Source: an uncultured Verrucomicrobiota bacterium
Lineage (GTDB): Bacteria; Auribacterota; JABMQX01
Direction of reading: 5' to 3'
Length of the DNA: 64,000 bases
NCBI GenBank assembly: GCA_964482435.1
Contig: CAYZXL010000006.1
Coordinates: 64,661 to 128,660, forward strand
Both the position numbers and the translations under genes were made by a program. Of this stretch, positions 334 to 4,351 are shown one piece after another. Positions within the stretch are counted from its first letter, which is position 1. Each line of letters begins with the position of its first letter. The notes under the pieces are model-generated. The model worked only from the letters and a program-made list of their open reading frames with translations, was not told the origin of the DNA and made no database searches.

Positions 334-514
334 CCCAACAGAAGGTAACCCTGCCGGAGGCAGGGCATCAACACCGATCCTACCGCAAGGCTTGCGAGCC
401 TTCCCAGAGCCAATGCTTGCTCCCCACCTTCGCGAACGCGATGGCGTATCCTCCCGTTCCACGCGCGCCTCCGCAGATGAAGGGAAAGGACCACGTGGAG
501 GCGAGAGCAGGTGG

Positions 515-1636
515 ATGCGGGGAGCAACGGTCAGCAACGGAATCGTGACGAACTTTACGCCTGCGGAGACGAAGAGGTACGTCTATCTCGGCGGGTCCGG
601 AATAAGAGAGCTGGATAATACCTCTCCTCCCAACGCGCTGAAAGAATACGTTAGGTGTGGCTCTAACCTGGTGGCATGGGCATCTTGCCAATGTCAGTGC
701 GTCACGACATTGCTCACGGGCGAGACGCCCGTGCCACGAGAGGTCGGCGTCCCCGTGACGGCAGGGGTCGAGCCTGTGAATCTGCCGCTGACTCGGAGCC
801 TCACCCAGTACGTCAGGGGGCTTGACTTAGGAGGGGGGATCGGAGGTATCATTTATCAGAAGAAAGGGATGGATTATTATTACTACCACTACAACCACAA
901 GGGGGACGTGGTGGCTCTGACGGATGGAACTGGGAAGCTCGCAGCCTATTACGAGTACGATGCGTGGGGGAATACGATGACCCAAGCCCGAAAGAGCGGC
1001 GTGGACAACCCGTACCGCTACTCGACGAAGGAATGGGACGAGAAGTCCGGCCTCTCCTACTTCGGCGCCCGGTACTACTCCCCCGAAATCGGAAGATGGA
1101 CCCAGAGGGACCCACTGGGGGAGGTGGACGGGCTGAACCTATACGCGTACTGCAAAGCGGATCCAGCGGGGCGGCTTGACCCGCTCGGGCTGCAGTTCAT
1201 GCCGCCGATAATATTCACGCCCTCCGAGGACCTTGCGTTCCCGGACGCGAGGTACAGGCCGGCGCCGGGCCCGGAGCGTGAGGCGAGCAAGCGATGGTGC
1301 CTGGCACGATTCGAGACGTGCCTTGGGAACTGCATTGATGCCAATAGACTCGACCTGAATGAGTTTCTCGACTGGTGGGGCATCATCCAGGTCGGAGGCA
1401 ACCTGGTCTTCGGGGAGAAGGCGACACATTTGGGAAGAGGACAGCCCCTCACGAACTGGCAGCACAAGCTCTTCTGGTGGATCGGGCGAAGGATGGGCTG
1501 GGGTGAGGGGTTCATTCGTGTAGGGAGGGTGATCGGCAAGTGGGGCGTTGCGGCAACGGTTCTCGAGGGATGGTTTAAGCTCGGCGTGGAGCTGTACTGC
1601 GCCGGGGTGTGTGCCATCGATCCCGACGCTTTTTAG
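515..1636 (+). CDS. Orphan RHS/YD-repeat C-terminal fragment with RHS core tip and a variable toxin domain (CT1)
   Basis: Track ORF 392..1636. Carries YD repeats and the core motif YYYYHYNHKGDVVALTDGTGKLAAYYEYDAWGN...NPYRYSTKEWDEKSGLSYFGARYYSPEIGRWTQRDPLG...GLNLYAYCKADPAGRLDPLGL, followed by ~147 aa of unrelated sequence. No N-terminal RHS body lies upstream. The start is uncertain: ATG 515 is preceded by GGAGG, with ATG 392 as an alternative. Confidence 0.8.
   Translation: MRGATVSNGIVTNFTPAETKRYVYLGGSGIRELDNTSPPNALKEYVRCGSNLVAWASCQCQCVTTLLTGETPVPREVGVPVTAGVEPVNLPLTRSLTQYVRGLDLGGGIGGIIYQKKGMDYYYYHYNHKGDVVALTDGTGKLAAYYEYDAWGNTMTQARKSGVDNPYRYSTKEWDEKSGLSYFGARYYSPEIGRWTQRDPLGEVDGLNLYAYCKADPAGRLDPLGLQFMPPIIFTPSEDLAFPDARYRPAPGPEREASKRWCLARFETCLGNCIDANRLDLNEFLDWWGIIQVGGNLVFGEKATHLGRGQPLTNWQHKLFWWIGRRMGWGEGFIRVGRVIGKWGVAATVLEGWFKLGVELYCAGVCAIDPDAF
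670..738 (+). repeat. Copy 1 of GC-rich mini-hairpin repeat family R1, lying in-frame inside the RHS orphan
   Basis: ggtggcatgggcatcttgccaatg...cacgggcgagacgcccgtgccacg closely matches 41932-41986 and the reverse complement of 58471-58524. It contains the hairpin CACGGGCG-aga-CGCCCGTG. Confidence 0.7.
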
Positions 1637-1701
1637 GCCGAAAACCAGTGGAGACCGGTGAGGGCTGCGCGTCTGCGGCCCAGTTCAAGGGAACTCGGTT
1701 C

Positions 1702-2241
1702 ATGGCCGTGATCGAATTCCTCGCTCTCAGCGTTGCGCGGGTGCGGGCCGCCTTGTTGGTCGCGCCCGTCACAAGTGCCGACCCTCCGGTTATCGTGAGA
1801 GTGATATTGCTTGTGGCCTTCGTAGCGGTCCCGGTGCTGGCGGCAGTCCTGTGGTCCTGGCAGGCGAGACGCGGAAGGCTGGCAAGGGTTAGCACGCGCC
1901 AATCGCTGTCGCCTCGGGCTTTCTTCGATGAGTACTACGGCGATTCCGCCCTCGGTTCTGAGGAAGTGGGGGCGGCCATAAAGGAGGTTTCCGCCGTTTT
2001 GGGAGTTCCGGCAGGCGTCATTAGACCGTCCGACCGCTTTGACACTGAGCTCGCGCCCGCGCGCGGGTGGGAGTTTGATGATAGCGCCATTGAGCTTGCT
2101 TGGCGCCTGGAGCTAATGGCGAAGGAACGAGGCGTGTCGGTGGATTTGGTGCACATTCGGACCGTAGATGACTTCGTCCGGTGCTACTGCCGCCTGTTGC
2201 CAAGGGTGCCAAGCGCTGAAGAGGAGCCTGTTGGAATGTGA
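1702..2241 (+). CDS. Putative immunity protein 1: two N-terminal TM helices plus a soluble domain
   Basis: Track ORF 1609..2241. Internal ATG 1702 follows AAGGGA. Hydrophobic helices are MAVIEFLALSVARVRAALLVAPV and VIVRVILLVAFVAVPVLAAVLW. It sits immediately 3' of toxin tip CT1. The immunity function is inferred from position only. Confidence 0.5.
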   Translation: MAVIEFLALSVARVRAALLVAPVTSADPPVIVRVILLVAFVAVPVLAAVLWSWQARRGRLARVSTRQSLSPRAFFDEYYGDSALGSEEVGAAIKEVSAVLGVPAGVIRPSDRFDTELAPARGWEFDDSAIELAWRLELMAKERGVSVDLVHIRTVDDFVRCYCRLLPRVPSAEEEPVGM

Positions 2242-2371
2242 GTCTCGCGCGCGCGGTCGGCAGGAGGGCCGCGGAGGCCGAAGTCGGCGAAATTGCGGAA
2301 CGCGGCCTGGTTGGAACGCGAGGCAGTTGGGCTCAGGCAATGGTTTCGCACTGTGTCGCGCGAAAGGTGAG

Positions 2372-3127: not shown

Positions 3128-3142
3128 CGGGGCAGACGGTCT

Positions 3143-3895
3143 ATGGACCCAAAGGTGCAGAAGGAACCCGTCCAAACTTGGACCGTGCCGGGCACCGCAG
3201 CTCGGGCTTGTGCTACGCTTTGGTACTTTAGCGTTAGCATCCTCGTTACTTACGCTACTTACGCCACGGCGGAGCGTAGCCGCGGGCTTGTTGCCTCGGC
3301 TCTACCAGCAGCGCTAGTGGTCTTCTATTTCGCAGGCTGGCGCGGTTCGCGCGTTCTTGCGGCGCTGCGGGGGCTTGAGGCCCGAGGTGCCTTCTGGAAG
3401 AAGCACTGGTGTGCGGCGCACGTAGGAGCCGCGGGCGGCTTCTTGTGGCTTGGGTGCTTCGTCCTCGGAACGCGGTCTCCGTCCTTCCTGCCTTTGTATG
3501 TGTTCTTCTTGCCCCTGTATGTCTGGCACGCGTGGAACCCCGGAATGGTCGCGCTGGCCGACTACGTTTGGCTGCTCGTTGGCGTAAATGGCGTGTACGT
3601 TGCGGTCGGAGCTTTGGCGGACGCGGTCCGCCGGACGACAAACCCACATCGCCGCGGGGCCCTTCTGCTCTCGGCCGGGGCCTTAATCTCTATGTTCATG
3701 GCTGCCTTCGTGGCGCGCTCGAGACAGCCCGACCCCAGCCGGCTCTATCCCTCAAGTACGGAGCTCTCGGCCGTGGTTGCACTCTACTCCGTGCTCGCGG
3801 GCGCCCTGGTGGCTCTGGCGGTCGGCACTTGGTGGCGTGGGTGCGGAAAACATCGGCATATCGACAGAGGTCCACATGCCGACCTTGGAGGGTGA
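3143..3895 (+). CDS. Polytopic inner-membrane protein, putative immunity protein 2
   Basis: 250-aa ORF with about 6-7 hydrophobic segments (WYFSVSILVTYATYA, LVASALPAALVVFYFAGW, GGFLWLGCFVLG, FLPLYVFFLPLYVW, VWLLVGVNGVYVAVGAL, ALLLSAGALISMFMAAFV, AVVALYSVLAGALVALAVG). It lies directly 3' of CT2. Confidence 0.55.
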   Translation: MDPKVQKEPVQTWTVPGTAARACATLWYFSVSILVTYATYATAERSRGLVASALPAALVVFYFAGWRGSRVLAALRGLEARGAFWKKHWCAAHVGAAGGFLWLGCFVLGTRSPSFLPLYVFFLPLYVWHAWNPGMVALADYVWLLVGVNGVYVAVGALADAVRRTTNPHRRGALLLSAGALISMFMAAFVARSRQPDPSRLYPSSTELSAVVALYSVLAGALVALAVGTWWRGCGKHRHIDRGPHADLGG

Positions 3896-4249
3896 GGTAT
3901 CGGTTACCAGAAGAAAGGGGCGGATTATTACTACTACCACTACAACCACAAGGGGGACGTGGTGGCTCTGACGGACGGAAATGGGAAGCTCGCCGCCTTC
4001 TACGAATACGATGCTTGGGGAAACGTGATGACCCAAGCCGAAAAGACTGGTGTGGACAACCCGTACCGCTACTCGACGAAAGAATGGGACGAGAAATCGG
4101 GTCTCTATTACTTCGGCTTCCGCTACTACTCCCCCGAAATCGGAAGGTGGACGCAAAGAGACCGCCACGGAGTTGGCAGCGGTCTGAACCTCTACGCGTA
4201 CGTGGGTGGCGAGCCGGTTTCCACGTTGGACACCTGCCGGACGTGGTAG
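3896..4249 (+). pseudogene. Third RHS core-tip cassette, a decayed remnant with no toxin domain
   Basis: RHS homology resumes in-frame at the codon after the TGA of the preceding gene: GIGYQKKGADYYYYHYNHKGDVVALTDGNGKLAAFYEYDAWGN...NPYRYSTKEWDEKSGLYYFGFRYYSPEIGRWTQRD. The usual DPxGL end is degenerate (EPVSTLDTCRTW*) and no CT follows. There is no start codon before 3959. About 250 nt are ~85-90 % identical by eye to 871-1120. Confidence 0.65.
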
Positions 4250-4351
4250 GGGGCTGCTCTTCGGCCGCGCCCAAGACCCCCGTTGCGGGGCCGCCCGCGC
4301 CGCGACTGCGGACGGAATCACCCGTTCTTCTCCGTGCGCGAACCTGACTTC

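Follow-up and report, generated by a model that had tools for sequence, protein, structure and literature searches.

A probable array of displaced, partly decayed Rhs C-terminal cassettes detached from any full-length rhs gene in an uncultured bacterium

Three truncated Rhs core ends in a 4-kb island

We analyzed a stretch of 64,000 nucleotides (the window) from an uncultured Verrucomicrobiota bacterium (assembly GCA_964482435.1, contig CAYZXL010000006.1, positions 64,661 to 128,660). Near its left end, at about nt 334–4351, lies an island of about 4 kb which holds two cassettes with a toxin domain and a membrane-protein partner and one toxin-less stump. The island is marked by the C-terminal core end of Rhs proteins, which occurs three times on the plus strand within 524–4249. 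The NCBIfam model TIGR03696 (Rhs_assc_core) matches the open reading frame (ORF) 392–1636 (copy 1) with 91 bits (E = 5e-26), the ORF 2168–3127 (copy 2) with 71 bits (E = 8e-20) and the frame 3896–4249 (copy 3) with 85 bits (E = 5e-24). As the curated cut-off of the model is 32.5 bits, the three copies are far beyond chance. At the DNA level, a repeat of 300 nt (D1) pairs 843–1142 with 3894–4193 at 84% identity, and a second one of 152 nt (D2) is found at 994–1145, 2410–2561 and 4045–4196 with 87% and 81% identity. The core copies also have perfect-identity blocks of 38–44 nt in common. Blocks of this length are long enough for RecA-dependent recombination. An original prediction had placed three Rhs core ends at about 840–1193, 2413–2608 and 3896–4249; these are borne out by TIGR03696 and the DNA repeats, and the likeness of copies 1 and 3, which had been put at about 250 nt of high identity, corresponds to repeat D1. 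The features of the island are the following.

524..651, plus strand: Rhs shell remnant of cassette 1, about 43 codons, 'ATVSNGIVTNFTPAETKRYVYLGGSGIRELD...LKE' (tblastn with P0004, P0005, P0009 and P0016, starts at 524–530; alignment A2)
652..813, plus strand: in-frame insertion of 162 nt (54 codons) in cassette 1 (clean 54-residue gap in alignment A2; no relative has it)
814..1192, plus strand: Rhs core end of cassette 1, 'YVRGLDLGGGIGGIIYQKKGMDYYYYHYNHKGD...RDPLG...LDPLGL' (TIGR03696, 91 bits; repeats D1 and D2)
1193..1636, plus strand: CT1, a Cys-containing C-terminal domain of 147 aa, 'RFETCLGNC ... YCAGVCAIDPDAF' (ORF list)
1702..2241, plus strand: candidate immunity gene 1, 179 aa, about two N-terminal transmembrane helices and a soluble domain (ORF list, hydropathy)
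2387..2608, plus strand: Rhs core end of cassette 2, the last ~74 codons (TIGR03696, 71 bits; tblastn; P0056)
2609..3127, plus strand: CT2, an all-helical domain of ~172 aa, Zn-phospholipase C / S1-P1 nuclease / Het-C-like (motif 'HALQDSYAH', HxxxDxxxH)
3143..3895, plus strand: candidate immunity gene 2, 250 aa, about 6 transmembrane helices (ORF list, hydropathy)
3881..4249, plus strand: Rhs core stump of cassette 3, 'DLGG*GIGYQKKGADYYYYHYNHKGD...RDRHG...LDTCRTW*', asterisks being stop codons (TIGR03696, 85 bits; translation; repeat D1)

According to the ORF list, the plus-strand frames of 392–4351 are 392–1636, 1702–2241, 2372–3127 and 3143–3895, followed by an open frame at 3896–4249. Using longer relatives in tblastn, we find that the RHS homology starts at nt 524 in cassette 1, at 2387 in cassette 2 and at 3881 in cassette 3, so that the shell and core parts kept in the three copies comprise about 220, 74 and 120 codons. 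All of them are 5′-truncated, each at another point, and such differing truncation points are the signature of displaced 'orphan' Rhs tips. The serial fragments with a variable partial core, the conserved core end and a distinct tip are those expected of an orphan rhs-CT array. Arrays of this type (orphan rhs-CT/rhsI) are said to be formed by C-terminal displacement, which was reportedly described by Koskiniemi in 2014. In the three Rhs ORFs we detect no N-terminal export or delivery domain (PAAR- or VgrG-linked, signal peptide, TcB partner), the cassettes contain no YD-repeat shell of ~1000 aa or more, and neither a YD-repeat body nor a long YD ORF is present anywhere in the 64-kb window.

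The frame of cassette 1 is open from a TTG at 392 (414 aa); the NCBI call P0001 starts at the ATG 515 and comprises 373 aa. The catalytic Asp codons 1109–1111 and 1178–1180 are intact, as is RDP...(23)...DPLGL. We take the arrangement Asp, 23 residues, Asp-Pro-x-Gly-Leu to be a putative aspartyl autoprotease pair at the core/toxin boundary, the roles of the residues being those in the TccC3 and YenC2 structures. The original prediction can be refined here because copy 1 is itself 5′-truncated (near nt 524) and interrupted by the 162-nt insertion. The latter is bracketed by a TACGTNAGG direct repeat and contains, at about 670–741, an imperfect palindrome of ~70 nt (GGTGGCATGGGCATCTTGCCCATG...CACGGGCGGGACGCCCGTGCCACG) which is similar to repetitive extragenic palindromic (REP) elements. 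This REP-like element recurs in the intergenic spacers 41932–41985 and 58470–58523, giving three copies in the window, and is predicted to fold into a long hairpin (−71.9 kcal/mol, z −2.4). By eye, we also noticed that in locus L006, from a related Verrucomicrobiota metagenome-assembled genome (MAG), an insertion of ~640 nt with several short GC-rich palindromes (1340–2030) sits at the same codon ('EYV|RGLDLGGG') as the insertion in the window. There is no synteny between the loci; the matching site could reflect shared cassette ancestry or an insertion hot spot.

Cassette 2 carries Glu in place of the first catalytic Asp ('QRELL') and the boundary motif 'IDALGI'. The Glu variant is also found in the CT2-type relatives P0009 and P0012. 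Cassette 2 had been proposed to have acquired its own ATG and a Shine–Dalgarno-like sequence. The ATG is indeed there, at 2372, and coincides with the start of the NCBI gene call P0056; the upstream AAAGGTGAG resembles a Shine–Dalgarno sequence but is spaced by only ~2 nt, which makes the proposal convincing only in part.

Cassette 3 lacks a start codon, has lost two codons by deletion and carries an in-frame stop close to its 5′ end. This stop is the TGA of the preceding gene (3893–3895), which falls in the same frame inside the RHS-derived sequence 'DLGG*GIGYQKKG'; hence the last five codons and the stop of candidate immunity gene 2 lie within RHS-derived sequence. The copy had been thought to begin directly after this stop, at 3896, which is not the case as the homology extends back to 3881. 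The loss of the DPxGL motif and of the toxin is, however, real: both Asp residues are kept, PxGL is gone, and neither a toxin nor an immunity gene follows. Cassette 3 ends at 4249 ('...LDTCRTW*'), five codons past the second catalytic Asp, which argues that the toxin was cut away at the boundary between core and toxin.

The tips and their membrane-protein partners

As had been predicted, copy 1 and copy 2 have different C-terminal tips, each with a membrane protein behind it; the tips 1193–1636 and 2609–3127 are unrelated to each other. For CT1 we found a single homologue, P0002, which is likewise an Rhs tip with the same C-terminal domain. CT1 has no match in Pfam, PDB or PADLOC, and its AlphaFold2 model (pLDDT 40) is unusable.

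More can be said about CT2. Its AlphaFold model, for which six homologues were used, is confident in the greater part of the toxin domain (pLDDT about 65–95) and superposes best on the phospholipase C (PLC) of Bacillus cereus, Listeria PLC, alpha-toxin and the S1/P1 nucleases; in the model CT2 has the all-alpha fold common to PLC and P1 nuclease. The motif 'HALQDSYAH' is kept in the CT2 relatives, and an N-terminal His and an Asp are invariant in alignment A3. Zhang et al. (2012, PMC3482391) give HxxxDxxxH as the signature of Tox-HET-C and connect Tox-HET-C with PLC and S1-P1 nuclease; the Tox-HET-C row of their table lists type II secretion, type VI secretion and PVC export as well as the PVC metallopeptidase, and in this row RHS repeats are not given. 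Thus, CT2 resembles Tox-HET-C, Zn-dependent PLC and S1-P1 nuclease in being all-helical, in the HxxxDxxxH motif and in the best superpositions of its model, but differs from them in that its sequence similarity is at or below the Pfam thresholds. CT2 itself scores 26.4 bits against DUF6765, below the gathering score of 26.6. Its relative P0017 passes VWA7_N (28.2 versus 27.5 bits) and is the only one above a Pfam gathering score, and relative P0023 matches Zn_dep_PLPC at E = 0.004. A Foldseek comparison of the CT2 model with the PDB gave no significant match, sequence searches of the PDB with CT1 and CT2 were empty or gave chance matches only, and the PADLOC defence models did not match. We predict that CT2 belongs, most likely, to the zinc hydrolases of the phospholipase C / S1-P1 / Het-C superfamily.

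The gene following CT1 starts with an ATG which has AAGGGA 9 nt upstream, and shows sub-threshold Pfam matches only (DUF6338 and DUF6101). Neither of the two membrane-protein genes has a Pfam or NCBIfam match at the curated cut-off.

Flanking genes and related loci

The island is flanked by the following two genes.

1..333, plus strand: 3′ end of a DUF4412-like gene, not RHS (weak Pfam DUF4412 match; tblastn 64% to a 279-aa gene of locus L028)
4352..8002, minus strand: smc, 1216 aa, convergent with the array (ORF list; 65% full-length identity to the smc of L028)

Locus L028, the closest relative, was found by scanning metagenome contigs with the C-terminus of smc. In L028 the DUF4412-like gene and smc lie next to each other in convergent orientation, separated by 128 nt, and RHS sequence is absent. 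RHS core sequence was also absent from the flanks of all 80 smc loci (0/80). Thus, the array is an island of ~4 kb within a convergent spacer and is truly detached. The original prediction had stated that the upstream gene 1–333 is not RHS and that the array is separated from any full-length rhs, and both statements stand, as this gene is the 3′ end of the DUF4412-like gene, the window is free of a YD body and L028 has an empty site.

It had also been considered that the window start is an assembly break which hides a contiguous rhs. Repeats do break or mis-join metagenome assemblies and the window begins only 391 nt before ORF1, so an rhs body just upstream of the window start or a mis-joining of the repeats could have produced this picture. 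The DUF4412-like gene upstream of the array and its convergent pairing with smc in L028 refute a hidden rhs body. In addition, CT2, immunity gene 2 and the start of copy 3 are found base for base, junctions included, in the Logan assembly L001, which was made independently, and the copies, being 81–87% identical, would not collapse in an assembly. We consider an artefact very improbable.

Some observations on the surroundings may be added. After '...SGYKQE' the DUF4412-like gene continues with a Pro/Thr/Gln-rich tail of ~55 aa (nt 155–333) which its orthologue in L028 does not have, the latter ending with '...GYKEE*'. This tail may be a read-through into island DNA, which would shift the left boundary of the island to about nt 160. 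The GC content of the island is 0.61 versus 0.58 in the flanks, and GC at third codon positions (GC3) resembles that of smc; a foreign base composition was rejected as GC and GC3 are near those of the flanks. A tRNA-linked integration was rejected as well since the window has no tRNA gene. The large ORFs of the window code for lectin/PKD, LTD/CotH, beta-helix and TPR/FG-GAP proteins, PNPase and IF-2. Unrelated to the array are three very large surface-protein genes at 23828–41135. Two of these proteins are ~1630–1660 aa long and have K319L-like PKD domains, the first also a legume-lectin domain; the third (1946 aa) has LTD, CBM and CotH domains and TSP3 repeats.

All of the closest ORF1 homologues are short proteins (231–431 aa). 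We found eight related loci with the same tip type in uncultured genomes, the nearest named ones being Verrucomicrobiota. The neighbourhoods of related tips are as follows.

L019/L022 (JGI contig): seven cassettes; neighbours are unrelated genes, with an IS256-type transposase at the end
L021: three tips, after groES/groEL/hsp20
L024/L025/L005: a tip before a DUF1573 gene
L107: two cassettes, after dinB/proS
L006, L007 and L008: single tips, no rhs within 2–3.4 kb of flank

In L022 the gene of the IS256-family transposase (Transposase_mut, 12499–13278) directly follows the last Rhs fragment of the seven-cassette array, and it is possible that this transposase is a vehicle for moving arrays. 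Decay is also seen in related tips: the core is interrupted by stops in L024 (7768–7770) and L008 (about 3740; 'GRWT*RDP', 'GR*TQRDP'), and in cassette 6 of L019 (19592–20051) a CT2-like toxin is frameshifted. The truncation points in the relatives vary as widely as in the window, ~75 to ~260 codons of the core being kept. This variation suggests recombination products and not a fixed domain architecture; a family of short proteins with a fixed N-terminus was rejected because the truncation differs in nearly every cassette.

The layout known from textbooks, with a main rhs, is found in locus L020, a Verrucomicrobiota MAG from a sister subclade with ~50% core identity. Here a full-length rhs is followed by a putative immunity gene and then by two orphans which keep ~450 aa of the body. 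This canonical layout indicates that the tips of the window belong to an ordinary rhs family. In the clade of the window only orphans are found. The main rhs of L020 (locus 3255–14700) appears to be split into the ORFs 3255–4859 and 4666–8481 and has a Sec-like leader; its tip is of a different class from those of the two downstream orphans, and a further body fragment lies at about 14618.

The core copies evolve under constraint. For 71 core codons in 14 copies (83 pairs) the median ratio of nonsynonymous to synonymous divergence (dN/dS) is 0.11 and the mean dS is 1.18. In the window, dS is 0.87 between copies 1 and 3, and on the 45 codons common to all three copies it is 0.42 for copies 1 and 2 and 1.1 for copies 2 and 3. 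Low dN/dS together with high dS argues that the core copies are old and diverged under protein-level constraint without recent homogenization. A recent duplication or gene conversion among the three window copies was rejected on the same grounds (dS 0.4–1.1).

One pair of relatives has a mosaic structure. L005 (1–4473) and L024 (7542–11796), which stem from different studies, are identical over ~4 kb comprising the toxin, the partner genes and the DUF1573 gene. They have 32 differences packed into 227 nt of the core, and the sequences further upstream have no homology. The crossover falls in the most conserved block of the core. This hints at a recombination crossover inside the core or at a chimeric contig.

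Origin of the array and comparison with known systems

We suggest, with a probability of roughly 0.6, that displaced 'orphan' Rhs C-terminal cassettes, in part decayed, form a detached array in this island. In this view each of them would be the 3′ end of an rhs gene which was cut off from its YD-repeat shell and from any export domain. The toxin domains would then be neither encapsulated nor delivered, since without shell or export domain they are undeliverable from this locus. Two kinds of parts would still be usable. The two membrane-protein genes could protect the cell when relatives attack with toxins of the CT1 and CT2 type. As a recombination substrate, the conserved core could allow a stored tip to be joined to an rhs body, either one in the cell or one that arrives with incoming DNA. 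The array itself would be decaying, as exemplified by the 162-nt insertion in copy 1 and by the stop, the deletion and the truncation in copy 3.

Several findings weigh against this proposal. No protein longer than 431 aa with this core was found at an identity of at least 55% among 5.8 billion clusters, and in an exhaustive HMMER scan of 1.84 billion representatives with body and core of P0005 all matches of at least 55% identity are at most 431 aa long. In the same scan the nearest long Rhs proteins (1463–2733 aa) are only 37–43% identical, and the body part of P0016 as query, in a search limited by the word index, retrieved three short proteins only. The full-length rhs with a matching core, which had been expected as recombination partner, was therefore not found in the collections searched. 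None of the eight related loci has a full-length rhs alongside in the flank examined (about 2–10 kb upstream; in L005 only about 180 nt before the contig end). With eight body-less loci and no full-length partner, a reservoir role is left without a visible recipient. The mosaic of L005 and L024 could be a chimeric join because L005 is represented by one contig only; for L024 there are three independent assemblies. The membrane-protein genes are candidate immunity genes against CT1- and CT2-type toxins by their position, and homologues of these two genes were not present beside related toxins in the loci fetched. Finally, the ORFs of CT1, CT2 and most cores are intact, the insertion keeps ORF1 in frame without a stop (expected by chance in ~7%) and cassette 2 has its ATG, which together leaves room for stand-alone expression.

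Is the array still in use as an unlinked store of silent cassettes, from which tips are swapped via the core, in a RecA-type reaction, into a full-length rhs elsewhere in the genome? The exact blocks common to the copies, the crossover inside the core of L005/L024 and the sister subclade with a main rhs and orphans point in this direction, and strong purifying selection on the core suits tips which cycle through a working gene. Furthermore, MAGs are incomplete, and a long rhs gene rich in repeats is difficult to assemble. The searches for a longer protein failed, however, although the proteins of this very MAG are in the collection, and linkage to a full rhs is lacking in all eight related loci. 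The synonymous divergence of the window copies speaks against recent conversion, copy 2 offers only ~74 core codons and copy 3 has no toxin to donate. An active reservoir is therefore possible but in our view on the unlikely side.

The intact frames could also be explained if the core-plus-toxin ORFs are translated from internal starts and act as stand-alone modules, either similar to type II toxin–antitoxin systems or by a shell-free export. ATG starts are present in cassette 2 and in the relative cassette of L005 (at 181, 'MGAVIYQKKG...'), and the dN/dS of 0.11 was obtained with cores known only in short form. There is a precedent in Salmonella, where internal promoters and a CTG start are used (PMC7043789). 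On the other hand, the truncation differs in almost every cassette so that they share neither an N-terminus nor a domain boundary. Several cassettes lack a start codon or contain stops, and a scan for promoters and terminators gave nothing above the shuffled level, promoter-like sites being no commoner than in shuffled sequences. Moreover, the Cys-rich CT1, the PLC-like CT2 and the membrane-protein partners suggest targets in the envelope and not a cytoplasmic toxin–antitoxin action. We regard stand-alone modules as a doubtful explanation. A broader version, namely that this lineage as a whole has Rhs tips independent of the shell, would combine the dispersed body-less arrays, the missing full-length rhs, purifying selection and core shuffling with proteins acting on their own, toxin–antitoxin-like or by another export route; this also appears unlikely to us.

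The proposed displaced array has close counterparts. In the literature, a displaced Rhs tip is described as a core remnant of variable length that ends with the conserved part of the core and is followed by a distinct tip and then by a small ORF, and the last fragment of a series has no toxin (Jackson 2009, PMC2935791; Poole 2011, PMC3150448; Steele 2017, PMC5727410). The orphan arrays of Enterobacteria and Snodgrassella alvi resemble the array of the window in several ways: their partial cores vary in length, the end of the core is hyperconserved and carries the DPxGL boundary, every cassette has a tip of its own followed by a small ORF, and exactly identical blocks could be used for recombination; with S. 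alvi the window also shares a terminal fragment without toxin. The orphan toxin/immunity layout known from Enterobacteria, which had been proposed for this locus, is therefore supported by partial cores, distinct tips and small downstream ORFs. Unlike these arrays, the one in the window is not downstream of a full-length rhs but between two convergent housekeeping genes, it does not form a low-GC trough, and its host is an uncultured lineage whose nearest named relatives are Verrucomicrobiota MAGs. Further, the main gene of the family in L020 has a Sec-type signal peptide and not a PAAR domain. In Serratia, the orphan core is 91.6% identical (amino acids) to that of the neighbouring main gene, whereas the cores of the window are saturated at synonymous sites (dS about 1). 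Thus, the layout fits the orphan rhs-CT/rhsI arrays in every structural respect save the linkage to a full-length rhs with the same core.

Two further systems are instructive. The rhs 'gene relics' of E. coli and Shigella, which occupy conserved positions in the chromosome (Jackson 2009, PMC2935791), are similar in that truncated remnants persist without a working full-length gene. There, however, other strains carry the complete gene at this position, whereas here the only comparable genome has an empty site, and the cassettes of the window keep intact toxin and partner ORFs. The orphan Rhs of Salmonella Typhimurium (Starsta 2020, PMC7043789) likewise consists of core plus toxin, has an internal start and is followed by its cognate gene, and it acts inside the producer as a type II toxin–antitoxin module. 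In contrast to the window, it adjoins the main rhs and uses the internal promoter of the latter, and its expression and toxicity have been shown.

The class of mechanism is well known; the detached layout is unusual and the lineage new. Orphan Rhs and contact-dependent inhibition cassettes are thought to be stores of toxin and immunity genes which lie behind the gene they serve, and here, in the window and in eight further loci, such cassettes are scattered through the chromosome of a little-studied lineage without a served gene in view. The puzzle is that these cores are seen only in short form and yet are strongly conserved as protein. Two candidates are added to the Rhs toxins, a PLC/Het-C-like tip with a polytopic membrane partner and an uncharacterised Cys-containing tip. 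If a closed genome confirms that there is no full-length rhs, it would become testable what keeps the cassettes intact, be it immunity alone, a toxin–antitoxin-like effect or an exchange of sequence with DNA from outside, and whether such arrays persist after the loss of the genes from which they came.

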